In this document: in pieces, positions 561 to 64,000 of the stretch | Layout: every line of letters begins with the position of its first letter | Position numbering within the stretch: position 1 is the first letter of the stretch | Assembly: GCA_000091205.1 (NCBI GenBank) | Contig: AP006496.2 | Length of the DNA stretch: 64,000 bases | Source: Cyanidioschyzon merolae | Taxonomy: Eukaryota | Direction: 5' to 3' (one strand) | Translations under genes and position numbers: made by a program | Notes under the pieces: model-generated | Seen by the model: the letters and a program-made list of their open reading frames with translations, nothing else | Database searches by the model: none | Told to the model about the DNA's origin: nothing

Positions 561-2215
561 TGAGGACATACCTGTGAGTCTCCCAAAGTCCGGGAGCGCC
601 CGCTGAGGAGACGACATCGCGGGGCTGGGTTCCGGCGAAAATGCGTCTCGCGGAAGATTCCAGTCCTTCTCTGCGAGCTTGCAGCGGAGAGAGCGCACGC
701 GATATCACGGCTCCAACGACGGGCAGCTTACCGCAAGCTTTCAAGGGTGCAGCATGGGCTTTACGACAACAGGTGTCATAGCATCAGCGATGCGGAATGC
801 GAGATTGGCGGGATCCGATCGGCAGCGCCGCCTCCCACATATCCGGCTTGATGACCGGCGGGCCGCGAGCGGTACATCTGCTTCGTAAATGGACACTCTG
901 ACGCCTCGTGGAATGGAGTCTGCTCAGCAGCATGTTGGGTAAACGAATGGGCGATTCACAGGTTCCGCTCAGCACTGATGCGAGCAGTGTGATGACAGAC
1001 TGGACAATGTGCGTGCCCCAGCCAGCACTGCTCTATATGGTGCAACGCCGCTCGACGAGTGTCGCCCTCCGATTCCGACCGGTCTATGCTGCATTCCAGA
1101 ATGCACCATTGAAACGACCCCAAGCGCCACTGATCTATGCTCCAAATCACCGATACCACCACCGCAAGCTTCCGGTCAGCCGTGCTGAACGCGTCATGCC
1201 CGATCCACCGACGCAGAGGTGCCCGGCGCCAGTCCTGCTTCCCGCGTTACCTAGTCGTCGGGCGGCGAGCTCCGGTTGGCTCCTGGGCCTGCGGCATCAC
1301 CGCCCTGACGAGCGCCATGCGCCAGCATCCACCGCTGCCGGGCACCGCTCCGGACAGCTGCGCGCACGAGACCACGAGCGCCACGGCGGCGCCAGATACA
1401 CCGCTGCCGGGCACCGCTCCGGACAGCTGCGCGCACGAGACCACGAGCGCCACGGCGGCGCCAGATACACCAGCCGCAGCCCAGCGCCGCGATCGAGCAA
1501 TGCGCGCACAGGGCGCCCGTGCGCCGACGTGCTCATCGGATCGCGCGCTCCGTTTCAATGCGCCGCACCGATGACGCGCGCGCGCGCCAACTGGCGCGCA
1601 CGATCCGCGCACCAGCCGGCGCCAGATCGCGCCACCCGCCGGTCCCACAATCACAGCCTCGCGCTCCGTGTTCGAAACCGATCACACACGCACCAAGCAG
1701 CGCGTACCGGCTCGCGGCACGCAACGCACACCATCACCCGGAACACCCGCCGCACGCACCGCCAGCGCAGCGCTCAACGCGAACAAGCGCGCTGCCGGCG
1801 CTGCAGCAGGGCCCCGGCGCCGGTCGCACACAGGCGTCACCTCCGGCAAGCCTTGGCGCTCTCCGCCCCGCATAGAGTCCCCAGGTACTCGCAGCGATCA
1901 ACCACCGGCCAGAGGCGCGCATCCGAGTTTGCGTGCATCCCCGGCCTGTGTCTGAACCCGTCTCTCCCGCTCTCTCTGTGTGCGAGCTGCTTGTGAGCGT
2001 GTGTCTCTGTGTGTGTGCGTGCGCGCTACCCGCAGCATTTCGTCTGTGACGTTCGTGTACCGCCGCCGTGCGCATCGCGTGCTTGCGTCTGTGCGTGCGT
2101 TCTCGTTTACGATTCTCTTCGCGCGTGTGCTTGCGTTTGCGTTCTCGTTTACGCGCGCGCACGTCTACGGTTGAGCCTGTGTTTGCTCTTCTTCTGCGTG
2201 TTTGTTTGCTTGTGA

Positions 2216-2548
<333 letters not shown>

Positions 2549-3154
2549 GCGTTGTGCTCGCTGCAACCGAGTACGTAAAGACCTTTGCTTCTGCGTACAT
2601 TTCATATAAACTCTCAGTTCTATGCACAAACTTACCGCAATCTTCGCTTTTGTGTAAGCCCTGAAAACATAGATGCAGCGAGGGACATCGCATAGCGTCA
2701 TTGTTTTTTAACCTCCCCTTGGATGGACTCCAGTCGTGCGAACGCTCGCGCGGCCGCATCGCCCAGCGCCCTGAATAAAGCGCTCAGGTGGGTATCCTGT
2801 CCGAAACGTCTTGGTAGCCCTGCTAGCATCGCCGATGGCCGTACGTGGAGTATCCAGCGACCTTCCTGGAACCAAGCCGTCGAGCGCCATCGCAACGGCC
2901 TTGCGTAGCGTCTGTATATGTTGAATTGGAAACGTATACAAACCATAGCGGACGACAGCGTCTCAGTGATAGACGTCTGCACAGAAAGCATGTTCTGTAT
3001 GCAGTGTATCTCACCGTATGAAGTATCGGTTGCCGGGCAACTGCATGCCTCGACAGTTCGAGCGATCGTCTTCGGCACGCAGGGAAGGGACGGCATTCGC
3101 CGGGGACTCGGATGCTGGACGCAGGAAACAAATCGGGTTAAGCAGAACACCAGT

Positions 3155-3508
3155 TTACTCGCCTTTGGCTTTCTTCTTCGGGAGAAGCACTGCGTGGATA
3201 TTCGGCAACACGCCGCCAGACGCAATGGTCACGTCCGCCAGGAGCTTGTTCAGCTCCTCGTCGTTGCGGATCGCCAGCTGGATATGACGCGGGATGATGC
3301 GCGTCTTCTTGTTGTCGCGCGCAGCGTTGCCCGCCAGCTCGAGAACCTCGGCGGTCAGGTACTCCATGACTGCAGCGAGGTAGACGGGCGCGCCAGCGCC
3401 GATGCGCTCCGCGTACCCGCCGTCTCGCAGGTACCGGTGGACGCGCCCCACCGGAAACTGCAAACCTGCTTTGCTGGAGCGTGACTTTGCCTTGCCCTTG
3501 GGCGCCAT
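3155..3508 (-). CDS. H2A: Histone H2A (copy 1)
   Basis: C-terminal 117 aa of ORF 3155-3790: [90 protein letters not shown]... matches the H2A core. ATG at 3506-3508. The upstream ORF extension is not credible. Confidence 0.93.
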
Positions 3509-7379: not shown

Positions 7380-9250
7380 CCTGGACATTCCAACTGGGGC
7401 AACACGAGCTTACGGATGGATACCTAGTTTGATGAATTTTTGTCGTGTTTCCGGAAGGCTCTTTCGATGGCCCACTCATGGAACTCGTAGCGTTCCTTGA
7501 GTGAGGATGCTTCGTGACGCTCTGGAGCAGGAGTTCGCAATCGAACCGATATCGATATCCAGTGCATGCGTACAGGCCTCTGTGGTTGCTCTTTGCCCGG
7601 GTATATTAAATTTAAAAGGCACACTCTTGAAGTTCTCGGTCGTTCCGTTGGAACGAGAATCATAGACCCAGCAATTCGCGCCTTTGGATTGGCGCGGATG
7701 AATTCCCGACGACGCACAAGCTCCTCACAAGCTCATGTCGAGCGTACATTGAATTTTTTAGGTCTATAATCCATTGCGCTCGAGACGCAAATCGCTCTTT
7801 CGTCGTCGCTACCTCCGATACGACATTCGAGAGCAGCATGGTATCTCTCAAAGGAGCTGGTGCCGGAGGCTCCCGTCACTTCTATTCGCATAAAGAACTG
7901 CATTGGACTCGGAGTCGAGTCATCGAAGCGACCGTTTCAAGGAGGGAATGCACCACCGTTTTCCACGGAGGGAGCGTAGACGGATCGAAAGCTTTCGACA
8001 GCATCTCCAGAATGAGTTTTCCCCGCGGTGTTTCCTTCATCGCATACAACATCGCACGCTGGAAATCCTCTAGCTAATAGCGCACCCTGCGGTTGCGCAT
8101 GCAAAAGACAGCAAACTCGCAGAACGATCCCCAGAAGAATCTCGGAATCGATTCACACGGCACCGGGTGCGGAAATCGAGAAGCGCATCGAGTGGTGCGC
8201 TCTGCACGGATCGAGGGCATGTAGCAGGCCACGAAGCAAGCGTTCACCCACTACGAAGCAGCGCTCGGCAGCGGATGAGGAGGAGGTCTGGTGCTGGTGG
8301 TGCTGGTGGTGCCCATACCGAACCGTCTGAACGAATTTACTTGTCGCCGATACGGCATCCGCACCGAGGCCTTATAAAACCTATATGCAAACGGGAAGCG
8401 ATGCGTCGATCGCGACTCGTACATGCGCACGAAACTCGTCGACATGAGCCAGAGGCGGCAAAATCAGGTCCTAAACGCCACCGCCAGAATCACTCGAACG
8501 CTGGCAGCAGTCCTGGAGAAACAGGATAGACTGGCGCATTTCATTCCAGATATAGGAGAGAGGAGAAGGATCCAGTCGCAGAAAAATCCCGCACAGGCTG
8601 ATGCGCATGACAATCGAAAGAGACCCAAACTCGAAAAAGTATATCCGGGTTGTTTCATTGGATCCGTTCCATTCTAGTCTGGACTGCGTTATGCACAAGC
8701 ACTGCTCAGTCGAACCAGGGATTCTCGAACGCGCGATTTCATTCTCGACAAGATGGGTATCGACTACGTCTCCAATTCGCAGACGTGCGTTCCACTGCTT
8801 ACTGACCAGACTTTTCCGAAACGACTCGTGATAACATCCCAGTCTACAGGTGTCGTGTCTGTCGAGTACTCTGCACTGGCTCCAGACGCGGCATTGCGAA
8901 TTCATTCTCACGGATAAAACTTCTATACAAGTCAGCCTTCCCCGAATGTGCGCTTGATCGCAGCGCGCACTGCAAGCAGCCGCCTCGAGCCGACGCCCCC
9001 CGTGCGGTACGGCGACGCCGTTCTGTCTCCGTGCAGCGACCGCACCGGCGCTATAGGCGCCATTGCGGATGCTCTCGACAGGTGCCAGGCACACACGATA
9101 GGACGTATGAAACGACCAGAATATCCGAGAAGAAGTATAGGTAATGTAACTTGGAGGTAGCGGGTTTGGTGGATATTTCACCGCACACAGGAAAAAACAC
9201 GCAAAAAAGGTGAGAAGAGAAAAATGCGCATAATCGGCGAACGCTGGCCT
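7380..9250. other. GC-poor island 1 with no convincing gene
   Basis: Base composition shifts visibly to AT-rich against a roughly 60% GC background. Only short or implausible ORFs occur. Confidence 0.5.
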
Positions 9251-26660: not shown

Positions 26661-27994
26661 AGCGGGAGCTGAAAACGCGCAAACTCCCGGCGACTACCGC
26701 GATCGTTCTCAGTGGAGGGTCTGCTGCACTCGACATGCTCCATTCGGGCAATGCAGTCCATCGTCTTTGATCGATAAAACGTTTCCGTACTGAGCACGGA
26801 GTACAGACTGCTCGCTTGATATCAGCAATCGGAAAAGTATCTATCAGTCTTCATCCTACCTTCAAGTTCTATGACGTATACGTCCCTTCCGAGATCATCA
26901 TCATTTCGTACGTTCTGTCGAGCGCCGAGCCTACCTAGTGCGCCCGCAAGTGCACCTGGCGCATCCCAGCCTACGCGCTAGTCAGAAGCGCAGGCGTCGC
27001 CTCGTCGCCACTAACGGGACGTCGTGAGACGCCTCGTGTAGAAGGCAGAAGGCTGCTGAAGTCGGACTTGAGTCATCGCAGCGATCGCTACCGGTACAGG
27101 GTGCGTCTCCGCTTTACACGAAATGTGGGTAGACGGATCGAAGTTTCCTGACCTGTTCCCCAATCTGAATTTTACGTACGGTACCTGTTTTACCACGGAC
27201 AGCATTGCAATCCATCATTCTTCTCTCGAATCGAGCGCTCTGCGCTTACGCACGCAGCGAATAGAGCACTCGCTGAGAGGATCGCTTAGAAGAAGCCCAC
27301 GATCACTGACTACAGCCCAGAACACCTCAATGCGGAAGGGGGTATCGATTGGAGCCCCCTGTACTCGTCCAGGGCATGATGCGAGCGATGAAACAAGTGT
27401 TCACGCGCTAAAAAGCCCTGCCTTTGTGATGGAGGAGGAGGAGGAGGCGGTGAATTTTGCGCCGTATCGACCGGTGGGAACACCAAACCACAACCAAGTA
27501 TGACTGCTTCGAAGCACACACCGGGCTGTTTACAAGAAAGATGAAAAGCGCGAGCGAAGCGCAGATCACAGAATCCATCCACGCACGAAATGCGTCAATA
27601 ACGCCCGGAAGCAGCGATGTCGGGACGTGAACGCTACCGTCAACATCCCTCGACTGCTGCCAACAGAGCTACATTGAAAGTAGAGACCGCCTTATTTTTC
27701 AGCCGAATAAAAGAGCGTGGAAAATGAAACACTCGTCTTCAAGTCCGCAAAGGATGGTATAGATGAACATAGAAAAAGACCCTAACGTGAGCGTCTACAC
27801 ACCCGAGTTCCTGGATACGTTCTGTTTCATTCCCGCGAGGATGCGCAGACCCCCATACTATGAGTGCTTGTACATCGCCGTTCGCTTGTGAGGCGCCCGG
27901 CACCAGAACTCCGCACCCAGGAGGCGTCGCTCTCTTGTAAACGAACCGCTCATAGCGTCATCGTCCTCGTTGCCACCGTTACACGACGCCATAG

Positions 27995-36566: not shown

Positions 36567-37940
36567 AGCTTTCACGAACTTTCAGATCGGAAGCGAGTCA
36601 TGCGAAAAGTTTGCGCTTTGCGTCCCCGTATCGAGCTGGTGAGTTCGCTGCGGCACGCGACGCGTCTGTGTTTTTTCTCGGGGGCGCGGGGCAAGCGTCT
36701 AGGATTGTTTACACGAATAAGAGAATCCGTCGTTGTGCGATGGATATCAGCATCAAGGAGAGCAGCAGCGATCATTGCGGAATTCAGACGTCCACGTACC
36801 TCGAATCACCACTAGCCACACTCTTCATCGCGTATAATGGATCGTTCATACGGTCGCCCAGGTGCCGAGTGCGTTCTGTGAGCGTCCAGTGTGACGCCTT
36901 TAGAGCCGGTGCAGACGCCGCACGCAGATAGAGCGGCTTTTGCGTACCACTGAGGGCGTTGGCTCTAGAACTGTCATCTAGTCGAGTGCAGGTACAGCGC
37001 GCTCGTTTCTGCCGCGACGAGCGCGCTCCTTTCGGGAACTCTGTCTGCACGCTTGCAGGTGCTGCCCAGCCTACGGAAGCTAGATATCATGAAGGGACGA
37101 TTTCGCACTTGATCATCACGCTGGTGGATGAGATTTTGCGAGACTTTGCTTTCCAGCGGGCGTCGCTGTGCATCTGGGTCTGGCGCTGCCCCAAGACTTG
37201 ACGAGGCGTCACATATGGCCGTGGTAGCTCGCCGCTGGAGCATCCACGCAATAGGAGTATGCTAGGGAGATGGCGGTAAAGGCACACCTCAGCCCGAGGG
37301 GCATTGTCGAGAGGGCTCGTCCACATCCATGTCAGAGGACGTTCATGTTTGCCATTTCGTGTTTATGCCAGTGGCGGCAGAGATGCATGACTGGGCGAGT
37401 CTCTTCAAACGACAAGGTTCGCGTGGCCTGCCGTGTAACGACAAGCGCCTGATTACACGAGTCACCAGAGGTTCCGCACCTGGCGACTCCCAACACGCAC
37501 GTGCACGAGTGGTACACCCGCATCCTCCGGGCAAACAAAGCGCACAAACGCTCATTGTACCCGGGTGTGCAGGGGCAGCAGCCGCGGTCACACGCACTCG
37601 GTGCAGTGAAACAGCGCAGGTTTCCTGTACCTGAGCGATACACCCAGAGATGGCTCTTATCGTGCGAGACAAATATCTTACGAACTCCATGTGATCAGCA
37701 AAGTACGCAAGGAAACATGGGGCACCTAGGCTCCGGGCGAAGGCCACTCAGCCGCCTCAGCGGGTGTCTTTGCCGGGGCGTCTTCCCTCGACGGAACGCA
37801 GCGTCTATTCGCATTCACCGGCACGACACCCTATTGAAGAGAAGCGCTCGCGTAGGCTCCACGCCGATAACACTCGTGATAATGTCAACGGCTGCGCAGC
37901 TAATAGCCCAGTAATGTGTGCCGCACCTGGCTCCGCTGTG

Positions 37941-38615: not shown

Positions 38616-39059
38616 CCCAGTTCGGCAGACTTTCAGCACGCTGCGATGCCGAGTACACGTCGCTCGCAGGGCCTAGCAGGTCCGCTCCTTAAAGCCTACG
38701 CAGCGCACGCTCCAACACGCTGTTCCAGCGGACCTGTGGTTGTAATTCGGGCTTGCGGGGTGTGTCGCCCCGCTGCCGACGGTCGGTCCAGCTGCTTGTA
38801 GCACCCCCGCTACCTCCGTGGAAGCTGTTTTTCCTGCCAGCGGCGGGCGTTTGAATGAATCGTCGATAAAACACTGTCCCAGGCGCGTCGCAGTGCTCCC
38901 CAGCTGACGAGCACCCGAAGCCATTTCTGTTACCCGATGCGTCGCAGCGCTTTCGTATGGACCATCGGCGCGTTTGCTTCTAAGATGAGCATAGAGCGAA
39001 TAGATAGACTCACTCACACGCTTTCCGCAGGACTTATACGAGCGGGTGCCTGCTATGGG

Positions 39060-40460
39060 CTTTCACTCTCATCTTGTTCACTTCGAGTCTGAGAGGCTGG
39101 CCCGGAAAGTTGGCTCAAACCAGCTCCTTGGGTCTTCTACTGAGCACTGTATGTCGTCTAATGTTCATAGCAGCGTTGAAGTCTGGGATCACGAACTGGA
39201 TGCGTTTATTGTCTCTTATTAAACTCACCAATGCAAGGATCCCTCGAAATGCTGCCCTCGGTGCCATTTGGTGCTCCATCACCTCTCCAAGGTTTCCTAT
39301 TCCCAAAGTGCTCCGTTGCCTTCTCTCCATCTCGACGTTATGAAGGATACACCCCAGCACATCCATTAGATTTTTTAAACACATTTCTTTATGCCCCTAG
39401 GTGACGACCTTATAGGAGCGCGTAGGACTTGCGGAAGAAAGACGTCATGTGTCTCTGTGTACCACCGTGTTCTGAACGCTTCAGTGATTCGCCTAGTGGC
39501 GCGATCTTTACTTTTCACAATAGGAAACACTTCTTCAATGTGGTTGAACCGGAAGCGTACTGACGAATGAAATGCAGCCCTACTCCGGTAGAATTGGGCA
39601 AGGCTTCAATGCGAGGGGAATGGTGAAATTCCAAAAAGTCGAACAGAAGAACACAGCCAGACGTCAGGGAATCGTCTTCAAAGATTCTACGATGTGAAAA
39701 CTGTTGTATGAGCGTTCTCTGGAGTCGAAACTGAGGCCGCAAAAGAAATCCACTGCAGCTGGAGTAGAGAAATTCTTATGTATTTTCGATATCGATTGTA
39801 TATCCAACGGGCGCCCCTCATCGCGAATACTCATATCCACTGTGACGGTTCTGTGTGGAGCAAATCTCGTGGAATGAAAAAAACAACGTTCTTGTGGCTC
39901 ATAGCCGGCGCGATGTTTCAGGGACTGTGTTCTAGTCGCCATTTCGTTCGGACATGGCTGTGAACGATCTAGGACATTTTATGTGACTGTATGCCACTGG
40001 TTTCAGGACCATACGAAAAAGCTGTAGACAAAAACAGTCACCGGTGATGGCTGCTATCGTCGCTTTTTGTTCCCGCAAAGTCGGCAACGGGTCGTGTTCT
40101 ATCACTGACCTCATGCACGCGTCGAGAATATCCGTTTCTTTTCGCGGAGTTCATCTAATTCTTTCTCTAGTGTTCCTCGACCGTTTGAGTGTTGTTCCAT
40201 GACTGACATCAAGAATCAATACAGATCTCCTTCAAATATCCAGTATATAATATATCCTACATGAAATTCGACTTCGATATATACAGTATATTACAACGTG
40301 ATTCCCATCTCTTGCTATACATCGCAGATCGTGTCGAGTAACCATGGGTTGAAAGCCTAAAAGATCGCGGATCGCAATCCCACCACCACCGTTCTGCTGT
40401 CTGGATCGCCGAGTCGCGAACGCTGTGGAGCCACGCTGTTCAGGGACACGTGGCAGATAT
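39060..40460. other. GC-poor island 2 with frameshifted minus-strand ORF fragments
   Basis: Composition shifts to AT-rich. Three abutting minus-strand ORFs (39115-39384, 39515-39742, 39664-39942) lie in different frames. Confidence 0.5.
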
Positions 40461-46749: not shown

Positions 46750-49700
46750 GCTTCAAGAATTGGACGCCGTCTCGAGGCCTGCCTGGTGCCTGCTCCACGT
46801 CATCCGAAAGAAACCTTCACATACGTGTTCAGCTCGAATGCTGTATTCGTAGCGTCCTCCTTATCCAATGTCATAATTAGGCCGAAAGACTGATACGTCC
46901 GCCATCAAGTTCTGTTGCCCAGCAAAAGACGTTCCAGGTGGCAGAGCAGAATCGCTTGAGCAGAGCTTTATCGGCTCCAGTCACTGCACGCTGCAAACAG
47001 TATCGATTACGAAGTAGATACACTAAGTAAAATCGAATAATGGAACACCTGTATCGTCTACAAGTTGCCTAGGAAGACCGATTCCGGTGTATCTATACGG
47101 CGCTCCAGCATCACTGGATTGCTTAACCGCACTACACCAGTGCCTTGCTTCATGCTTGGATCCAAACGTTCCCTCCTGGCCGCTGTTTCTTCATCGCATG
47201 GCTTCCGATTTTCAGCACAATGCCCGCAATGACTACGACACGACTTTTTCGATACTTCGCTTAACACAGAGTCTTGGGCGCTGCAGAAGCACGAGACATA
47301 TTCCGGATGTTGGTCGAGGCGTTGAACTCCCGGTGGAGAAAGTGCTTTTGCCCATGACTGCTGGGAAATGCGCACCGCAGTAAACCTGTCACCATAGACT
47401 ACCTTGCCAGCTGACGTGCGGTCAGCTTCACGTCCACCATGTCGTACATTCGGACCTGTTCCTCTCTGTTTCTCAAGCTGCATCATCGTGCACCTCAGCT
47501 CGTGGTGCTTTCATGTCGTCCTGAACTTGTCCAAAGGAATCCTGCACAATCGGCTCCTGCATTCGTTTTACGCTCCGAGCGAAGGAGCATGAGTCCAGCC
47601 TTTGTGTTGAACAGCACGTTCAGCGTCATAGGCCATTACCAAACGACACGACGTATCGGTTATTTCCTTTTTCAACACAGTGAGCAAATTGGTGAATGCA
47701 CGCATCTTGCGAACGTGCAACCCGAAGCGCTGACGACACCAGTACGGTATCATGAACTCCTGCTAAATCTCATTCTCATATGCAATTTTGACGCTCGCAT
47801 ACTCCCTGAATCAAGTGATGAAAGTACGCCCTCTGCACGATACGGCGCCCAGAGCGTCGGCACAGGTCCGGACGGCATTCCTCAATCTGTTGGAATGTCC
47901 CGCGGCGTCTATGATGCCCAGCTGCAGATGATACTGAACGCTGGAAACCATGAGCAGCTTCCTGTGATATCCGTTCGGATCTTTGGATCCTTCATTATGG
48001 TTTGGAGGTACGTCGACGCTCATGATATTGCTGGACCTTGGATGCACGCCCACCACGAAGAGTTTCTTATCACCTACCGTGAACAGTTGGATACGACTCG
48101 CATTGTTCGACTCATGATTCGGTTTCCGATGAATTCGATGGAGATTAAGCCTTCGTTGGTCTGCAACGTTACTGTATGCTTCGTTCCGTTTTCGCCCGGT
48201 CTAGGAGAAATCTTGAGCGAGCTCTACCAATACATTTCGCGGACTCGTTTGAACTCTTCACATTTGCTTCCGGGTGTCCGCCCTAACCCGCTGAGGAGGC
48301 CACACAACATTGTAGACACTCATCTATGGCGATGTAATGAGCATTAATGTCACACATGGAAACCACATCCAAAATAAACACCAGAGGAGACGAGGACTCT
48401 CGAATTCGGGAAGGGAGTCGACCGCGCTCTGGATGGCTCTGCTCAGGAACACGTAGTGCTTCAAGATGGAATGTAGGTAGGTAGATATCACGTCTCAATT
48501 ATACATCGGATACGACGTCCGCTGGTCCGAGGCAGAGAGCAACACGATGAGCTTGGACAGCATGAAGCGTCTCTTGCTCTCGTTAACGCATCTCTTTGAA
48601 CTTCGCGACAAACTCCATCTCGTCCGTAGCCAGCAAGCCACTTGCCTACGTCCGCACCCGAAGAATCCCTTCATGTAATCCTCACTGTTCTGAGCCTCAA
48701 TAGTGACGCTATAATGACCACAGCGTGCGCTTCATGAAGCCCCGGTCATTGGCTTGAACATGGTTTTGCTTGTTGAGGTTGTTTTGAAACTTTCTGGCAA
48801 CTGCGGCGTACATGTTCCGATGGATGATGTGTAACGGCGAGGCGTCGGGGTAGTTTTGGAAGCGTGTGTACAAATCTCTAATCCTATGAACAAGCCGAAT
48901 GGCATCTTCTATCCGAAGCATCCGTTGCTGCAAGGAGGTTTGACAGAAGATTTCCTGAGGAATGCGGACAACTGGCAGCCCAGCGTCCGCAGCGCCCCTG
49001 AGCAGTTGCTTGGCGAGGTGTGTCAAGGAGAGGTAAGCATGGCGAGCTTCCGCCGAGGTGGAAGCTGCGCGAACCTCAACGGCCAGCTGCCTCATCCTTT
49101 TTGGAAGACTCACCAGCTTGATACGTTTTCTGTGGAAAGCCTCGACAACGAGTGCAGACTGATCTATCCGCTACCACAATTTTTTCTTCTTGTCCCTCCT
49201 CGCCCACTTTTCGGAAGGATCCTTCCCCTCTTCGTCTAGTGGTTTCCTCTCCCTCTCCACAAAGCGGTGTTGGTACCGATGCGGTCGATATACTTCATAT
49301 CTGTTTTTTCTCTGGGCTGAAACAGTCTCGGCGATAGATGGCAATGAAGCTCATCTATTCTGCGTGAGTGTCGATTTCTCCTGAAGCACCTCTTTGCCAC
49401 CGTATCTGCGGGCAGCGCGCTCGCGGTGCGGGGCACGCTTTCCCCTCCCTGATGCGCTCGAGCGGAGGAGCAAACCATCAGCTCAGAGCTGGTTACCATA
49501 GAAAAACACTCGTCCGAGAACGGTCGAGCGAACGACTTCTCGACTGATCTGTGAGCATGAAAGCGGAGTCTGCCGACAGAAAATTTACCTTCAACTGTTG
49601 TGGACCGAGGAGTTCAGGCTAGCACGAAGAACAGCTCACTACCTATTGCTGCAGCATACACCCAGACCGCCTTGGATCTCTACAAAGCGACGTTGTCTAA

Positions 49701-53064: not shown

Positions 53065-53148
53065 GGGGGGCTGGCGCAACGGTAGCGCGTTTGACTCCAG
53101 TCCGCAGTGGCGATCAAAAGGTTATCGGTTCAAATCCGGTGTCCCTCA
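53065..53148 (+). tRNA. tRNA-Trp (anticodon CCA) with a 12-nt intron at the canonical 37/38 position
   Basis: Manual fold:
- acceptor GGGGGGC/GTCCCTC plus discriminator A
- D-arm GCGC-AACGGTA-GCGC
- anticodon stem TTTGA/TCAAA around loop CT-CCA-G[tccgcagtggcg]A
- variable loop AGGTT
- T-arm ATCGG-TTCAAAT-CCGGT
Coordinates may be off by 1. Confidence 0.7.
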
Positions 53149-54678
53149 CATTTTGCAAGCTCGTGCCGCTTTGGCACTAGAGGTACTGCACTACGCAGCA
53201 AGACGCTCGGGGACACTTCCTGCGGTTCGCAGCCTCAGAGCTGTGTACCGCGCATACTGCACTCAATGGAGTTGTTAGCGGGGGCGACTAACGCTCCAGA
53301 GGTTGCTTTCGTTGCTACGGTCTAGGCTTGCTGAAACTGACCAGACTCGCTCGGGTGCGCGAACGTTACCAGCGGTCAGTTTAGAAACAGTCGTTTCGCT
53401 GCGGACGCTTGGACCTTCCGCCAGCCACGGTACTGTGAAATGCCCACGGCATAGAGGCTTGTTCGACCCAGTGAACAACCGGGAGCCAAGCTATCTTAGG
53501 CACCTGCTTCAATGTTGTTGCGTAGAGCCTGACTCCTCCGGTTGTGCGAGAGCAGCCAATAACTAGTGGAGGGAGCAGCTCTGCTCTCCAGATGCGTCTG
53601 CGTTCCAGTGGCCCAAAACTTTTCTTTCCATTGGGGCATGGTTTTCAATCGATCCAGCGGCATGTGTCCGTATAGCGCCGCGTCTACCGATACTACTTGC
53701 TCCGAGGTTGGATGCGACGCCACCACGGTGACCGCACTGGAACAGAGCAGCCCCGCCGTGCCATTGCGGGTGTCGGGCCGAAGCTCTTAAACCAAATGCC
53801 CTCGGGCAGAATCCGCAGGGCCCCTGGATCTGCAAGAATGCTGAAGGGAAACGCACTCGCGAGGCCGCTTCGACGGCAGCGCGGCAAGCGACTCGGACAT
53901 GACGTCGAGTGGCCAGCCTTCAGTGACGCGCCCTGTCCGTGGCTGGGTATCCAACGCGGCAGCGCCAACCCTGCAAACCCCGGACAGCGCTCGGGTAGCA
54001 CACGCGTCACTGTGATTCTACGTATGTATCCAAATGCGCTCGGGGTTGCCAAAACCCGCAATATCCATCCGCGCTCGGTAACACGGCTGCATCGAAACGC
54101 GCGCGTTGCCTAGTCCTGAATCTTTGAAACACCTGAACCTCGTCGCGGGCTGAGAGCTAATGAAAGCGCCGCGCAACGCCTAGGAACTTGTTCCCCATTC
54201 TGACTTTCGGTATTTAGTGTGTGCTGCTCCACCCCGGGGCCGCTGTACACAACCATCCTTTCTGTCCAGCCGAAGACGCATTGCCTTCGATGTGATCGCA
54301 ATAAAGCACTGGAATACAAAGGGAAAGCAGCAGCAGCAGCAGATGATGGTGACCGTGTTCAACGTCTAACAAAGTTTCCTCATGCCTTTACTGGAGCTTT
54401 CACTGCACACGGCGAGGGATATGTGGGCGCCCCGTCAGCGTGCCCGTCTGGCTCAGCTACTAGCCCTCGCACGGGACGCATGATACCGTTGGAGTTTAGA
54501 TCGACGCTACACCATTGCAATGCAGCAACAGCCGCTGTCTATTACACTGAAATTTACCTGGTCTCAAAACCGTATCCCACTTTCCGCACGATGGACATAT
54601 ACTACAAGCGCGTTTCTGGTAGCCGTATATTTGACAAGGGTGCTTTCCTGGCACGAAAAAAAGTAATGAACAGAGTTC

Positions 54679-55167
54679 TCAAGCTGTGCAGTTCGTTGAA
54701 CTGCCAGAGCCCGACGGATCCTCGCGCAGATGACCAACTACTTCGTATTTTTGGAGAAACTTCTCAAACCACTGGTACAGCGTCTCTTTTTCGTGCTCCG
54801 TCAAATCATCAATAGCGCCACAGACTTCGCCAGGTTCCGTGCTCATCTTTGCGAGTCCTCTGCTCGCGTTCTTCCCAGCAAAGACAAAGTACGGCCCACC
54901 GGGCCCATAAAAAGACCTCGCATCGGAGACGTCGAAAACTTCAGCCCGCGCCCCAGGCCGTGGCTGTACGGCCACGTAGATCGGCTGCCCTTTTGTTCCG
55001 TTGTACTGAGCAAGCTCTTCGCCAGTGAACGCCCTCGGTGCCGGCCGTTCATGGTGCCGTGGCGGCGGCTGCACTGCAGGGTTCTCAACGTGGTTACCCA
55101 TCAAGCGAAGCGCACCCAGCACGAATACACCGCCACCCAAAAGTAACCAGAGTCCAACTGCATCCAT
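54679..55167 (-). CDS. MAPR-type membrane-associated cytochrome b5-like heme/steroid-binding protein
   Basis: An N-terminal TM segment (MDAVGLWLLLGGGVFVLGAL) precedes ..FTGEELAQYNGTKGQPIYVAVQ...VFDVSDARSFYGPGGPYFVFAGKNASRGLA.. ATG at 55165-55167. The upstream ORF extension derives from the adjacent Fanzor-like element end. Confidence 0.75.
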   Translation of the reverse strand: MDAVGLWLLLGGGVFVLGALRLMGNHVENPAVQPPPRHHERPAPRAFTGEELAQYNGTKGQPIYVAVQPRPGARAEVFDVSDARSFYGPGGPYFVFAGKNASRGLAKMSTEPGEVCGAIDDLTEHEKETLYQWFEKFLQKYEVVGHLREDPSGSGSSTNCTA

Positions 55168-55222
55168 GATAGCGTCGAAGCGTTCACCAAACGCCGTTCT
55201 AAAGTAGAACGACGCCGACCGT

Positions 55223-56422
55223 TTACAGTAGAGGAGAGAAACCCGCCCTAGACAAGAAGTCTCCAACTGATGTGCAGACGCCTCCCGTCTTTTTCGACGG
55301 GTCACCCACTACTGCTTCCAACTTCTTCTCATATAGGTCGACTTTGAGAGGTTGTCCAATAAAGTTCATTGTTGTTGACTCTGGAGGTCTCTTCTCCAGC
55401 ACCGCACATCTCCTTACATTGATGGCGGCGTTTAAGTCCCGGTTCACGAATTCCATACGTTTCGTCCCGTTGATTGTACTTACTAATGGAAGGAGTCCAC
55501 GAACTTTCGCCCTCCTTTCCATTTGCTCCTCTGCCAGCTGTCCGTACTTTGCTATTTCCTCGGGGCTCCGTTGGCACTTTTCCATCGCCACTCTCTGAAG
55601 TGTGCAACCCAGCTCGTGGTGTGTGTACGATGTTCGAAACTCATCTATAGGTATCGTGACGAAACGCCTTGCGCACTCCTTGTACGCTCTCGTCGTTGGA
55701 GCTGGTGTACACCCTTTTTGGGTCTTCCATCGCCTTGCTCCGTACGCTACTACGAGCCCTTGACGGTCGTCCTCCTTCAAGGCGCTCAACTGGTTGAAAG
55801 AATTCGCGAACGCCCGCCGCTTACCACAATACAAATTCATTCGCAAACGAGCCCACCGGGACTTGGTATACTCATCCCACAGTGCATCCCAATGAGCAAC
55901 GCGAAATTCTATGAACTCCCGAAGAGCTTTAAAGTCCGCTCCGCGGCTCGTCACCTCGCTCAAAGTTTCCAGGCGATCCTTCATTCCTGCATTCCATGTC
56001 TCGATTTTCTTCCTTGCATTCACTATATCGGATTCTCGATAGTATATTGCTCTCGAGAATCTCAACAGATGCACGTCTTTCTGACGTAAGTTGCCGTCAG
56101 TACCATCTTCCTCACGCTTCGGTGCTACGATGGTTATGATATTGGTATTCCCAGGGTCCGCGCCAACGACAAAGTCGCTATCCCGCACTTTCTGCGTCGC
56201 AGGTTCCGCCTCCTTCTTCTCTTCATGCTTCGCCGCGTAAACGATAACGTGGTTATCCTGCACTTTCTGCGTCGCAGGATCCGCCGTCTTCTTATCTTCA
56301 TCCTTCCTCACGGACGAAGCCGAAGGCGGGACTGAACGATCTGCCTTCAACCGTCGATAGTGTACACACATGGCTACTCCATCGGGTTCGATCATCCCAG
56401 TGAAAAACTTTTGCTTGATCAC
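55223..56422 (-). CDS. TnpB/Fanzor-like RNA-guided-nuclease-family protein (RuvC-I, degenerate Zn finger, RuvC-III). N-terminal REC/WED region is absent.
   Basis: [16 protein letters not shown] fits the RuvC-I GxDxGxxN motif. [22 protein letters not shown] fits the TnpB 'vdp-yTSq-C' entry to the Zn ribbon. [10 protein letters not shown] fits RuvC-III RDxNAAxNI. Only about 85 aa precede RuvC-I. There is an internal 75-bp direct duplication at about 56200-56300. The ORF starts at a GTG; the first ATG is at 56393-56395. Confidence 0.7.
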
Positions 56423-56489
56423 TTTGAGAGGTTTGAAATCGAATATATTCTTCCAGTACGTCTTCCGGTTCTTACCGGTTAACTTGCGT

Positions 56490-57326
56490 CAGAAAGACGT
56501 GCATCTGTTGAGATTCTCGAGAGCGATATACTATCGAGAATCCGATATAGTGAATGCAAGGAAGAAAATCGAGACATGGAATGCAGGAATGAAGGATCGC
56601 CTGGAAACTTTGAGCGAGGTGACGAGCCGCGGAGCGGACTTTAAAGCTCTTCGGGAGTTCATAGAATTTCGCGTTGCTCATTGGGATGCACTGTGGGATG
56701 AGTATACCAAGTCCCGGTGGGCTCGTTTGCGAATGAATTTGTATTGTGGTAAGCGGCGGGCGTTCGCGAATTCTTTCAACCAGTTGAGCGCCTTGAAGGA
56801 GGACGACCGTCAAGGGCTCGTAGTAGCGTACGGAGCAGGGCACTGGAAGACCCAAAAAGGGTGTACACCAGCTCCAACGACGAGAGCGTACAAGGAGTGC
56901 GCAAGGCGTTTCGTCACGATACCTATAGATGAGTTTCGAACATCGTACACACACCACGAGCTGGGTTGCACACTTCAGAGAGTGGCGATGGAAAAGTGCC
57001 AACGGAGCCCCGAGGAAATAGCAAAGTACGGACAGCTGGCAGAGGAGCAAATGGAAAGGAGGGCGAAAGTTCGTGGACTCCTTCCATTAGTAAGTACAAT
57101 CAACGGGACGAAACGTATGGAATTCGTGAACCGGGACTTAAACGCCGCCATCAATGTAAGGAGATGTGCGGTGCTGGAGAAGAGACCTCCAGAGTCAACA
57201 ACAATGAACTTTATTGGACAACCTCTCAAAGTCGACCTATATGAGAAGAAGTTGGAAGCAGTAGTGGGTGGCCGGTCCAAAAAGACGGGGAGGCGTCTGC
57301 ACGTCAGTTGGAGACTTTTTGTCTAG
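56490..57326 (+). pseudogene. 5'-truncated inverted copy of the Fanzor/TnpB-like gene. It lacks RuvC-I but retains the Zn-finger-like segment and RuvC-III.
   Basis: ORF 56370-57326 matches the minus copy from [11 protein letters not shown]... onward, about 99% identical. Small indels change the C-terminal frame (GGRSKKTGRRLHV against [13 protein letters not shown]). Confidence 0.6.
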
Positions 57327-57634
57327 GGCGGGTTTCTCGCCACTACTGTAAACGGTCGGCGTCGTCCGACTTTAGAACGGCGTTCGGTGTCGGTGGCCCT
57401 TTTACGAGGTTTCTTCCGACGCAACCTCCAGCTTTTGAACAGTTGACCGCGAACCGACACCCGCATCCGTTTTTTTACACAACACAACCTGAGCAAAAAG
57501 TTTGCAGAGAGTCTTACACGTTACGAAAGCGAAATATGTTGGTCCGAGCTACTTGTGCCCTGAAATCCTCGGATAATAAGCAAATACACCACGCATGGAA
57601 AAGTTGAATCTGCGTCTATTCGAACGCACTTTGG

Positions 57635-60343
57635 TTAGACATTTCCCGGGCGAGATTCGGAGCAGGCCCAGATGCGTCCAGTGCTGACATCCTGAAGCAG
57701 CTGTTGAACAGCATGGAGAACACGCGGACTTGTTGCGTGGGCTTGATTGGGACTACCAGCTGCAGCGGTGCTCGCCACGATACCAACCTGGCGCACGATA
57801 TGCTGCAGTCGCACATAGCGCCTCGCAGGGCATGCATCGCGTATAGGGAGCTGGAGCGTCGCAGCGCTTTCCAGAGAGGCCTCCGGTGGAAGCGCTCGCG
57901 CCTGCAGAAAGCGCCGAATCTTTCGTGCACGGGAGAGGATGGCGTCGGGCATCCCGTTCGCGCGGGCACAGGCCAGCGCGTAGGAGTCCAAGCAGGGCGC
58001 CCCTTCAGACAACTTGTACAGCGCGGTCAAGACCACGTCGTCGTTCTGATCTGGAGCATCACCGGTCTGGCGGTTTTCCTGCACGAGCACTTCAAGTTTG
58101 AAGAAGCGCAGCCGCGAGTTCGCGTGAGCTTGCGCGTAGAGTGTCCCGGTCACCTCATGGAAATGGGTCGCAAATAGCACCGTCATTTGCCCCGTGACGT
58201 TGGTTGCCAACTCTGAAAGCACCGCTGCCGCAAGTGCCCTTCCGTCTTCATCGGAAGTGCCTTTGCCGAATTCGTCAACAATAGCGAGCGACCTGGAAGT
58301 GGCGTACCTGAGCGTCTGCGCCATTTGGATGCAATCGTTCATGAATGTTGATGTCTCGCGGCCGGTGGAATCGAAACTCTTCACTCGGGCAAATATCCGG
58401 TCGGTCACGCCGATTCGGGCGCTACGCGCCGGCACGTAGGAGCCAACCTGTGCCATGTGTACAATCAACGCAACTTGGCGCAGAAGCACGCTCTTGCCGC
58501 TTGCGTTTGGCCCTGTGACGACACAGACATCCCCGCGCCTAACAGAGAGACTGTTAGGAACGAAAGAGTCCACGGTGAGCTCTTGAATCGGGTGGCGAGC
58601 GTCGATTACGTCGATGTGACAGGCTGATTCTGCCCCGAGGACTTGTGGACAAGTCCACTCATAGCGCATCGCAGAGAGGGCGAAGCTGAGCCAACAGTCG
58701 ATCTCTGCCAGCAAGTCGCATGTGCGACTAAGCACTGGTATCGTGGGTATCACGGCGGCCTCGAGATCTCGAATGATGCTCTTCTCGAGGTCGTTGATGG
58801 CCCCGGGCAGATCACCGAGCTCCTCATCGAGCTGACGCGTTCTGTCGTTCTTCACATATGCATCAGTATCGGTGTCGAGCGCGTGCTCCAGAGAGGCATC
58901 GGATTCCATCTGGGCAGCGTCTGAGCGGGAGATCTTCATCACATAGCCGAGGCGCGGATGAAACTGTACACAGATCGACCGCTCCGTGGCGGACGACCCA
59001 AAATACCTGCTCTTCTCCGATTGAGCCACGCTCTCGAGAAAACTGTCCAGAGATTCAAGGGCTAATCTCATATTATCAAGGTTTTCATCAAAGCCGGTCT
59101 TGACGGCTGGATTCCAGCCCGACTTGGATCCACTCATGTCGATACATGCCCCGATTCGTGTCGCGACGCTTGTGTACCATTCCGGGTCGAGCACGGGTGT
59201 CAACTCTTGCGCATTTTCTTGCAGAAAAGCGCTTCTCTCGCGCCAAACAGGCAACACGATTTGAACCAAGTCGGAGAATCCATTAAAGAGCCCCGCGACT
59301 GCCACGTTGCATCCGTGGAGCGCTGCCCAGTCTTCCGCAGTCGCTGCGCCCGAAACCAAGCGCCTCCAAAGATTTTGTGGATGATGCACAGCTTTCAGGA
59401 GCTTTCTGAACAATATCATGTCGATGCTGGCCAAGGCGCCGGCCAGGGCCTGAACCACTTCGAGACGCTCTCGAATGCGCGCAGGGTCACAGATTGGCTG
59501 CGTTAGAATCTCGCGGATTTTTCTCTGTCCGGGCGCCGAGGCCCCGAAGCTGCTAATGATCTGGTAAAGCGTGAGCCCGTGTTGATGGACTCGAGCGCCT
59601 GACCTAGGCGCGGAAACCTTGGCCGGTAGGACCCTCAGTTCTCGCAGAAGACTCATCGGCGATATAGCTAATTGCTCCATATAAAAGGGCTCTGCGCGTA
59701 CGGTGTGGATATCAACATCACAGCGCATCGCTAGAAACGACAGCAGCGCCCCTAGGCAGGTCTGCCCGACCGGCCCCTGATCATCCAATGGTGCTCGCCG
59801 GTCCGGAGACGAGCTCCCGCTTACATCTACGCTCAATTGATGCTGAGCGAAGGCGTCTACAGGATTTTGCCACCAGCGAATAGTTTCTTCTATGCGCTGA
59901 GGCGCGACATCATCCGCGGCGAGAAGAACCAGCGGCCCGCCGCCATCAGCGAGTTCGAGGCAATCGCCCAGTCCACCGGAAACGGCGGTGAGTCTTTCAG
60001 CGGGGAAAGCTTCGATTTGCTGGACTTCGCTGCGGTGCATGTCGCGGACAGCCTGTGACGCTACCCGCGTTAGCATCGCCCTGAACTCGTCGATGGCGTT
60101 TGCGGGGGTTAAAATAAGGTTCGGCTCGATCGCTCGAAGGGTGCGCTCGGTTTGCGAAAATGGCGCCGAGTCTCCTATCTCACAAAAGCGTATCACAAGC
60201 GATATCGTCGAGCACCATGCAATGCCAACACGCTGCTTCCGCACCGTCGTCATAAGGAAGATCTCTTCGCCTCCGTCAGTCTCATCGATCAAACTCTGAC
60301 GGGTTGGGGCTCCGCAACCCAGAGAATGCATAGTCGAGCTCAT
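57635..60343 (-). CDS. MSH5: MutS homolog 5 (meiotic MutS-gamma subunit)
   Basis: The ABC ATPase is ..VVTGPNASGKSVLLRQVALIVHMAQVGSYVPA..STFMNDC..LAIVDEFGKGTSDEDG.. DEFGKGT is MSH5-specific; other MutS homologs have DELGRGT. There is no N-terminal mismatch-binding domain. The N-terminus ..IFLMTTVRKQRVGIAWCS.. matches the MSH5 start. ATG at 60341-60343. Confidence 0.8.
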   Translation of the reverse strand: MSSTMHSLGCGAPTRQSLIDETDGGEEIFLMTTVRKQRVGIAWCSTISLVIRFCEIGDSAPFSQTERTLRAIEPNLILTPANAIDEFRAMLTRVASQAVRDMHRSEVQQIEAFPAERLTAVSGGLGDCLELADGGGPLVLLAADDVAPQRIEETIRWWQNPVDAFAQHQLSVDVSGSSSPDRRAPLDDQGPVGQTCLGALLSFLAMRCDVDIHTVRAEPFYMEQLAISPMSLLRELRVLPAKVSAPRSGARVHQHGLTLYQIISSFGASAPGQRKIREILTQPICDPARIRERLEVVQALAGALASIDMILFRKLLKAVHHPQNLWRRLVSGAATAEDWAALHGCNVAVAGLFNGFSDLVQIVLPVWRERSAFLQENAQELTPVLDPEWYTSVATRIGACIDMSGSKSGWNPAVKTGFDENLDNMRLALESLDSFLESVAQSEKSRYFGSSATERSICVQFHPRLGYVMKISRSDAAQMESDASLEHALDTDTDAYVKNDRTRQLDEELGDLPGAINDLEKSIIRDLEAAVIPTIPVLSRTCDLLAEIDCWLSFALSAMRYEWTCPQVLGAESACHIDVIDARHPIQELTVDSFVPNSLSVRRGDVCVVTGPNASGKSVLLRQVALIVHMAQVGSYVPARSARIGVTDRIFARVKSFDSTGRETSTFMNDCIQMAQTLRYATSRSLAIVDEFGKGTSDEDGRALAAAVLSELATNVTGQMTVLFATHFHEVTGTLYAQAHANSRLRFFKLEVLVQENRQTGDAPDQNDDVVLTALYKLSEGAPCLDSYALACARANGMPDAILSRARKIRRFLQARALPPEASLESAATLQLPIRDACPARRYVRLQHIVRQVGIVASTAAAGSPNQAHATSPRVLHAVQQLLQDVSTGRIWACSESRPGNV

Positions 60344-63650: not shown

Positions 63651-64000
63651 CTAAGCGGACTTGAGCGGCAGCGCCTCGCTTCTATGCAGGGCTTGTAGCA
63701 GGCAAAACGCGCCAATACTTATTTTGTAAAACGAAAAATGCTTCGTGGACATGCAGGATAAACTAATACCGATGCGCAGACGCCTAAGAGCGTTTTTGGA
63801 CCAGTCGCCTGCTATCGGCTTCAGTTTCTCCTTGCACACTTCGAGCATCAGAGCCTGCCTCACAAAGTTGTATCGAGTCGGCTCCTGTGGTTTCATCTTC
63901 AGCACCGCACATCTTCTCTTATTGATGGCGGCGAAGTATCAGTTTGCGATCTCTTTGCATTCATTGACGCTGCTTGAGCTCACCGATGGAGGGATTCCAA
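63651..64000 (-). mobile_element. C-terminal part of a third, divergent Fanzor/TnpB-like copy running off the window end
   Basis: ORF 63651-63905 (..KMKPQEPTRYNFVRQALMLEVCKEKLKPIAGD..) aligns with ..[32 protein letters not shown].. of the 55223 copy at about 45% identity. Nucleotides 63895-63945 (cagcaccgcacatcttctcttattgatggcggcg) match 55395-55430 across the RDLNAAIN-coding segment. Confidence 0.6.

Follow-up and report, generated by a model that had tools for sequence, protein, structure and literature searches.

A head-to-head pair of Fanzor1 open reading frames in Cyanidioschyzon merolae, very probably decayed copies of the transposon CMe-1A

What is a palindrome of two nuclease-like open reading frames (ORFs) in the genome of a red alga, and can either of them still yield an RNA-guided nuclease? 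The question is raised by a stretch of 64,000 nucleotides of Cyanidioschyzon merolae DNA (contig AP006496.2 of NCBI GenBank assembly GCA_000091205.1; hereafter the window), in which an earlier reading made from the DNA letters (the sequence-only reading) had pointed to an inverted pair of TnpB/Fanzor-like RuvC nuclease genes at positions 55170-57395. RNA-guided nuclease activity of Fanzors was shown in 2023, and their mechanism was solved in 2023-2024. Our analysis places both ORFs in the Fanzor1 family, and we are confident that the pair consists of two decayed, 5'-truncated copies of CMe-1A, a Fanzor1 transposon of this alga, joined head-to-head.

Used as single sequences, the two window ORFs gave no relevant match in Pfam, NCBIfam or the PDB sequences. 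Pfam and NCBIfam models of TnpB likewise stayed below threshold for both, and relatives of the ORFs scored at most 18.5 bits against PF07282, whose cut-off is 26.3. In a large protein collection, close relatives number more than 250, nearly all of them unnamed metagenome proteins, with identities of 53-96% and mostly of 60-80%; the Pfam label that relatives bear, PF26935 (DUF8286), gives no information, and no PDB match was obtained with a profile built from 31 close relatives (70-78% identical). Profile searching of 1.84 billion cluster representatives returned 1341 clusters, many with proteins of 600-740 amino acids (aa). A profile hidden Markov model of 45 diverse relatives matched PDB entries 9cf0 (PpFz1 of Parasitella, E=2.2e-18), 8gkh (SpuFz1 of Spizellomyces, E=1.1e-10) and 9cer (GtFz1 of Guillardia, E=3.3e-6), with nothing else of note in the PDB besides these three solved Fanzor1 nucleases. 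AlphaFold produced an unusable model of the window ORF from a shallow alignment (a pLDDT, or predicted local distance difference test score, of 37) and a model with pLDDT 75.7 from a diverse alignment, in which residues 101-250 lie mostly above 90. Foldseek comparison of the latter with the PDB put SpuFz1, PpFz1 and GtFz1 at ranks 1-7 (E 5e-8 to 1e-5; query-based TM-score 0.38-0.48), ahead of Cas12 RuvC proteins. The ORFs belong to the Fanzor1 family, and the TnpB/Fanzor call of the sequence-only reading is therefore borne out.

Alignment of the active site leads to the same family. In SpuFz1, residues D383, E541 and D606 coordinate two magnesium ions (Saito et al. 2023). Residue counting in the 8gkh alignment, with a constant offset of 394 (maltose-binding protein fusion) to reach SpuFz1 numbering, places the Asp of DPG, the Glu of DEF and the Asp of NRD in our profile on these residues, and the catalytic columns are invariant or nearly so in an alignment of 50 sequences with the window ORF at its head (D110, E282 and D350 in its own numbering). 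The minus-strand ORF has two signatures that set Fanzors apart from most TnpBs: the 'DPG' motif, and a Glu placed six residues ahead of the first zinc-finger position. The three motifs originally read by eye thus do align, in order, with catalytic positions. One of them needs a new name: the segment taken for the entry to a zinc ribbon is present and includes E261, but what it really holds is the RuvC-II Glu in its relocated position, with the four zinc-binding cysteines absent. Profile search, predicted fold and catalytic alignment are accordingly in agreement with the original assignment. The two copies carry the following ORFs and motifs.

55185-56480, minus strand: the longer 5'-truncated copy assigned to CMe-1A, corresponding to consensus ~1945-3169 plus 7 nt, with one extra 75-bp unit (blastn 87%).
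55223-56422, minus strand: ORF of 399 aa, corresponding to about Fanzor1 residues 347-723 of 734; its first ATG lies at 56393-56395.
56158-56306, minus strand: two 75-bp tandem units, 84% identical, encoding a 25-aa repeat just upstream of RuvC-I.
56141-56164, minus strand: RuvC-I motif GADPGNTN (aa 87-94), with the Fanzor signature 'DPG'; D89 aligns with SpuFz1 D383.
55640-55642, minus strand: relocated RuvC-II catalytic Glu, E261 in IDEFRTS/DEFRTSYTH, which aligns with SpuFz1 E541; in the plus copy the mirror codon is 56931-56933.
55436-55438, minus strand: RuvC-III catalytic Asp, D329 (NRD), aligning with SpuFz1 D606; the mirror codon of the plus copy is 57135-57137.
56481-57389, plus strand: the shorter 5'-truncated copy assigned to CMe-1A, corresponding to consensus 2262-3169 plus 7 nt and lacking RuvC-I.
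56370-57326, plus strand: ORF of 318 aa, with the family-typical C-terminus at stop codon 57324-57326.

The 75-bp (25-aa) repeat before RuvC-I varies from 1 to ~5 units among copies of the family (for example at loci L004, L009, L041 and L045).

Fanzor1 in C. merolae and the CMe-1A element have been known since 2013. CMe-1A is a Fanzor1 transposon of this red alga (Bao & Jurka 2013, Mobile DNA 4:12; PMC3627910), present in ~150 copies that are each ~80% identical to a 3169-bp consensus, and it encodes a single-exon Fanzor1 protein of 734 aa, CMe-1. The element has no terminal inverted repeats (TIRs), its target-site duplications (TSDs) were undetermined in that study and its class was left open; its 5' 635 bp are common to another repeat, TE-N2_CMe, and the family has kept its coding capacity for a long time (PMC3627910). 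We aligned the consensus DNA and protein, taken from the supplementary files of Bao & Jurka 2013, to the window. Consensus 1945-3169 maps to window 56484-55192 as the minus copy (87.4% identity over 1053 nt and 86.9% over 252 nt), and consensus 2262-3145 maps to window 56481-57361 as the plus copy (88.3% over 884 nt). This identity of 87-88% meets the level typical of CMe-1A members (~80%), and the window protein is nearly word-for-word the published CMe-1 across RuvC. In its motifs, its 25-aa repeat and its 3' end the window element is the same as CMe-1A, and it shares the profile of an old, multi-copy element without TIRs and with long-lasting coding capacity. The window as a whole has 51-64% G+C, is intron-poor with long uninterrupted ORFs and contains several further pieces of CMe-1A and TE-N2_CMe, and metagenome contigs match it at 99%.

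What distinguishes the window copies from the published element is that both are 5'-truncated and that they are joined head-to-head. The sequence-only reading had recognised the truncation of the plus copy, which starts at consensus position 2262, but the minus copy, which it had taken as full, is 5'-truncated too, starting at 1945 of 3169. On the protein, the minus copy begins at about residue 347 of 734, so that 346 N-terminal residues are gone, and the plus copy begins at about residue 453. Full-length relatives have 600-740 aa; like the family consensus, they retain the N-terminal half together with a KKRK/KKQKR stretch, and the alignment of the family profile to PpFz1 reaches into this half. 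Elsewhere in the family, upstream of about consensus 648-672, a different common 5' module stands in place of the first ~650 bp (the TE-N2_CMe module) at loci L011, L046, L019, L052 and L026; such 5' module exchange among many copies indicates subfamilies with swapped 5' ends.

Comparison with the solved Fanzor1 structures SpuFz1 (8gkh), PpFz1 (9cf0) and GtFz1 (9cer) shows a homologous fold, with DPG in RuvC-I and NRD in RuvC-III as in CMe-1. The solved proteins also have the RuvC-II Glu relocated beside a 'TS' motif and a length of 600-740 aa, like full-length relatives of CMe-1. Identity in structural alignments is nevertheless just 11-17%, CMe-1 has its 25-aa tandem repeat inserted before RuvC-I, and nothing that aligns with WED/REC is left in the window copies. 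A further difference concerns the CCCC zinc finger (TNB/NUC) between RuvC-II and RuvC-III, which is missing throughout the CMe-1 clade: where SpuFz1 has its four Cys, CMe-1 has H (the His at the first zinc-finger position), L, L/A and a gap, and the clade consensus keeps one Cys at most, in 'RGLLWC' (45 representatives; window ORF aa 261-316). Since Bao & Jurka placed CMe-1 in Fanzor1 nevertheless (PMC3627910), the absence of the zinc finger reads as a clade-specific loss, as far as the aligned sequences suggest.

By analogy with solved Fanzor1 proteins and TnpB, an intact Fanzor1 would be an omega-RNA-guided RuvC endonuclease, in which the N-terminal WED/REC half would hold the guide RNA and read the target-adjacent motif (TAM), and the C-terminal RuvC domain (Asp, relocated Glu, Asp) would cut DNA; these domain roles are established in Fanzor structures (Saito et al. 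2023 among them). The minus ORF represents only the C-terminal 54% of the 734-aa protein. It holds RuvC-I, the relocated RuvC-II Glu and RuvC-III, has neither the nuclear localisation signal (NLS) nor the N-terminal half that aligns with WED/REC, and near 55286 a 1-nt deletion alters its last ~21 aa, leaving a frameshifted C-terminus. In the plus ORF, the first 37 aa are an antisense read-through of the palindrome's centre and not Fanzor, with homology beginning at 56481, and just the Glu and the last Asp of the catalytic triad are kept. Because the WED/REC-aligning half and the NLS are gone, and RuvC-I as well from the plus copy, we infer that neither copy would be able to act as a guided nuclease; both appear to be transposon relics, lying between a cytochrome-b5-like gene and a MutS homologue.

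The palindrome that the two relics form was delimited with a repeat search of the window. It found inverted-repeat arms at 55284-56092 and 56481-57289 (809 nt, 99% complementary) and their outward continuation at 55185-55286 and 57288-57389 (102 nt, 93%), so that the whole arms span 55185-56092 and 56481-57389. Between them lie the following.

56093-56480, no strand: unique centre (spacer) of the palindrome, 388 bp, corresponding to consensus 1945-2261 of the longer copy.
56478-56484, no strand: head-to-head junction, where inverted consensus position 2262 abuts position 1945; 4 nt (AGTT/AACT) can be assigned to either copy.

The palindrome had been drawn from the letters with arms at 55175-56087 and 56490-57390, that is 5-10 nt off, and with ~99% arm identity, which holds over the 809 nt and falls to 93% in the outer 102 nt. 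Its centre, put at 400 bp, does contain RuvC-I of the minus copy, GADPGNTN at 56141-56164. Relative to the CMe-1A consensus, the arms have 114 derived differences in common and private ones numbering 4 and 10, so their similarity is not due to chance. The closest other copies, among 65 fetched loci, reach at most 87% aa identity to the window arms. Given so many common derived differences, so few private ones and no other copy above 87%, the arms either descend from one another or are being homogenised.

How the palindrome arose is constrained by its outer boundaries. Both arms stop exactly at the family 3' end, as defined by aligning the 3' ends of 39 copies, and the flanks beyond are unrelated. 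A plain segmental inverted duplication including flanking DNA was rejected for this reason, the arms stopping at the element's own 3' end. The 7 nt past the consensus end (TTYGGTG) were likewise considered as a duplicated flank and rejected, as most other copies carry TTYGYTG-like sequence there. We tentatively favour, at somewhat under even chances, a local inverted duplication from one copying event. The copying strand would start at the 3' end of the element and proceed inward as far as position 1945, would then switch template onto itself at position 2262 through a 4-nt microhomology (AGTT) and would run back out to the 3' end, leaving two arms that both finish at the genuine 3' terminus.

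Whatever the initial event, the arms have probably exchanged sequence since. Differences between them cluster in the outer ~120 bp (~90-93% identical), the inner ~745 bp being ~99.6% identical, and the arm in metagenome contig L002 mixes variants of the left arm with variants of the right, as a mosaic. Because of this clustering and this mosaic, it is likely that the inner ~745 bp have been kept uniform by gene conversion between the arms while the outer ~120 bp drifted. The palindromes of primate Y chromosomes are large and have arms homogenised by arm-to-arm gene conversion. The window palindrome resembles them in its near-identical arms, its unique spacer, the divergence at the outer arm boundary and the mosaic arms in a related haplotype; it differs in being far smaller, with 0.9-kb arms that are transposon fragments. 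In L002/L068, positions 1-1411 compare with window 55978-57389 with the centre flipped, either through flip-flop recombination with gene conversion or through ambiguity in short-read assembly. We did not accept the flipped centre of L002 as evidence of flip-flop inversion, as a short-read assembler cannot orient a spacer between near-identical arms of 0.9 kb.

Several other accounts of the locus deserve weighing. Faulty assembly, with a repeat collapsed or mis-joined, might be suspected behind the palindrome because short-read contigs at the locus break inside the arms and one contig (L002/L068) has the centre in the opposite orientation. Yet the specific junction of inverted 2262 with 1945 is common to the window and two independent, separately assembled metagenome contigs of the same locus, L002 (ENA) and L014 (JGI), and in both L003 and L014 the arm next to the cytochrome-b5 gene is the one that lies there in the window. 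Such recurrence argues that the palindrome is not produced by assembly, and we consider an artefact very improbable. Still more improbable, to the point of being negligible, is that the ORFs are prokaryotic TnpB (of IS200/IS605 or IS607) or viral Fanzor2, present for example through contamination or recent transfer. The TnpB of bacterial IS200/IS605 elements such as ISDra2 does share the RuvC D-E-D core and the order of motifs with CMe-1, and the relatives have a weak, sub-threshold match to PF07282, the Cas12f1-like TNB (best E=0.0023). But the top solved-structure matches by sequence and by fold are all Fanzor1, with TnpB and Cas12f far lower or absent; the relatives have the Fanzor1 length of 600-740 aa, about twice that of TnpB; several sampled full-length relatives start with a lysine/arginine-rich stretch; the Glu is relocated; the flanking DNA has eukaryotic genes (linker histone, PrimPol-like, MutS homologue); and no TnpA is present. 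Nor do we give much credence to one or both ORFs being functional Fanzor genes of an active RNA-guided nuclease locus, which seems highly unlikely even though the minus ORF retains its catalytic Asp, Glu and Asp, its frame is open for 421 codons, the hairpin in its 3' untranslated region (UTR) is intact and the ratio of nonsynonymous to synonymous substitution rates (dN/dS) of the window copies against the consensus is 0.26-0.30. The minus ORF has lost the 346 N-terminal residues that comprise WED and REC in solved Fanzor1 proteins (omega RNA binding and TAM reading) together with the NLS, and its C-terminus is frameshifted; the plus ORF is entirely without RuvC-I; and the low dN/dS is accounted for by selection in the source lineage before truncation, not at the window locus (cf. 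Bao & Jurka, PMC3627910).

A closer competitor to the single copying event is a history of two independent insertions, in which related 5'-truncated CMe-1A copies landed in opposite orientation, each with its own 3' end, and their interiors were later converted. We regard this as possible but rather doubtful. It would account for both arms ending exactly at the family 3' terminus with unrelated flanks, and for outer 102 nt at 93% beside an interior at 99% or more, a pattern expected if two older copies had been converted; copies that are 5'-truncated but keep their 3' end intact also occur elsewhere, for example at L053 and L057. On the other hand, it needs two truncated insertions that abut exactly, with a 4-nt overlap and no DNA between them; no remnant of the upstream part of the first copy is left beyond either arm; and the head-to-head truncated arrangement, which is undescribed in Bao & Jurka 2013, occurs at none of the 65 other loci. 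Some points do weigh against our own interpretation of inactive relics from one copying event. The locus would look no different today had two separate insertions been followed by gene conversion, and a search for empty sites by means of the cytochrome-b5 protein found 8 metagenome contigs, all with an arm and breaking inside the arm or the centre, so that these contigs include no empty site or single-copy haplotype at that locus. In addition, the longer copy has an internal ATG within its 421-codon open frame, and to judge from its sequence a RuvC-only protein may be expressed.

The ends of the element may bear on how CMe-1A moves. In the 39 aligned copies, the family 3' end reads ...GAAAGGCG, followed by TTYGYTG, and a 3' UTR of ~70 nt is conserved among copies. 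A hairpin lies just inside this end in both window copies.

55190-55216, minus strand: subterminal 3' hairpin GGCGUCGUUCUA CUU UAGAACGGCGUU, -14.9 kcal/mol, z = -3.5, stopping a few nt short of the element's end (55185).
57358-57384, plus strand: 3' hairpin of the plus copy, weakened by substitutions to -10.2 kcal/mol, z = -0.5.

About half of the copies keep the hairpin (L013, L039, L040, L044 and others). Two forms of its sequence occur, CGTTTTTC/GAAAGGCG and GGCGTCGTTCGA/TCGAACGGCG, and one base pair is compensatory between the two. The hairpin may serve as a signal for transposition or else form the guide RNA's last stem. For the final 230 nt of 28 copies, RNAalifold yielded only a weak consensus (-3.2 kcal/mol, 12 pairs), and we therefore claim no omega-RNA structure beyond the terminal hairpin; Rfam returned nothing at the palindrome locus, its sole match being a tRNA at 53065. 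At the 5' side, the flank of full-length CMe-1A copies has at least 3 T in its last 4 nt at 8 of 11 distinct loci, against an expectation of ~3.6% per locus by our own estimate at a T frequency of 0.22, and the 3' flank starts with TTY. Copies preceded by a T-run include L009, L016, L024, L032, L039, L045, L048 and L021. As a lead, not a result, this T-run may be the TAM of the Fanzor.

These ends recall two kinds of known element. Like IS200/IS605 elements, CMe-1A has a fixed short motif in the 5' flank, a subterminal 3' hairpin and neither TIRs nor TSDs, and, by analogy with their TnpB, its guide RNA would be expected to come from the 3' end of the element; CMe-1A differs in having no TnpA. 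CRe-1, CRe-2 and CRe-3, Fanzor1-carrying Helitron2 elements of Chlamydomonas (PMC3627910), insert, as CMe-1A does, just 3' of a T-run with a T on the other side, TTTT|T being the target of Helitron2-type Fanzor elements, and they too have no TIRs, a 3' subterminal hairpin and many 5'-truncated copies with intact 3' ends. The likeness to Helitron2 lies in these end features and not in similarity of the end sequences, and is a lead only. No RepHel or other HUH transposase was seen in the fetched loci, in which no search aimed at such genes was made. These leads could be joined into one scheme, which as a whole we think unlikely: CMe-1A may be a single-strand (HUH, Helitron2- or IS200/IS605-like) element that inserts after a T-run serving as TAM, its 3' hairpin doubling as the last stem of the guide RNA; the head-to-head dimer may be a replicative by-product, formed when a nascent strand snapped back while copying from the 3' end; and the clade, with more than 1000 sequence clusters, may represent a naturally occurring Fanzor1 lineage that lacks the zinc finger and has stayed under purifying selection.

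The pair is set closely between two host genes, and other features of the window include further traces of the same families.

54679-55167, minus strand: cytochrome-b5-like host gene, 162 aa, with its ATG 18 nt from the transposon end.
57635-60343, minus strand: MutS homologue, 902 aa, with its stop codon 245 nt from the other transposon end.
About 47260-49230, minus strand: far more diverged Fanzor1-like pseudogene, matching CMe-1 residues 27-723 at 26-35% (tblastn), with only short ORFs left.
39058-39438 and 63768-63953, minus strand: short Fanzor1 C-terminal (RuvC-III) relics, 46-50% aa identity to CMe-1.
8983-9160 (minus strand), 26773-26947 (plus strand) and 36864-36968 (plus strand): fragments of the first ~270 bp of the CMe-1A consensus, 72-80%, from the module common to TE-N2_CMe.
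53065-53149, plus strand: tRNA-Trp (CCA), 85 nt.

As the ATG of the cytochrome-b5-like gene is only 18 nt from the arm, the 5' UTR and promoter of this gene must sit inside the transposon arm. The gene lies next to the transposon 3' end (55167-55185) in the 8 metagenome contigs as well, and syntenic contigs carry the linker histone and the PrimPol-like gene. The palindrome had been described as the only mobile or nuclease-like element in the window; this is contradicted by the Fanzor1-like relics at ~47260-49230, 39058-39438 and 63768-63953, the first of which also matches the family representative P0159 in pieces at 31-44% (tblastn). The tRNA-Trp gene probably holds an intron, since its 85 nt exceed the length of a standard tRNA.

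As a discovery, the pair is of little weight: it very probably represents dead fragments of an element catalogued in 2013, from a family whose mechanism has already been solved. It does have value for method, in that three short motifs read by eye gave the right family where single-sequence searches of Pfam, NCBIfam and the PDB did not. The large Fanzor1 clade without a zinc finger and the palindrome with its signs of gene conversion are side observations. Many intact CMe-1A copies are present in metagenome contigs, and the end features of the element, its T-run target and its 3' hairpin, may point to the mobilisation mechanism of CMe-1A and to the TAM of its Fanzor.

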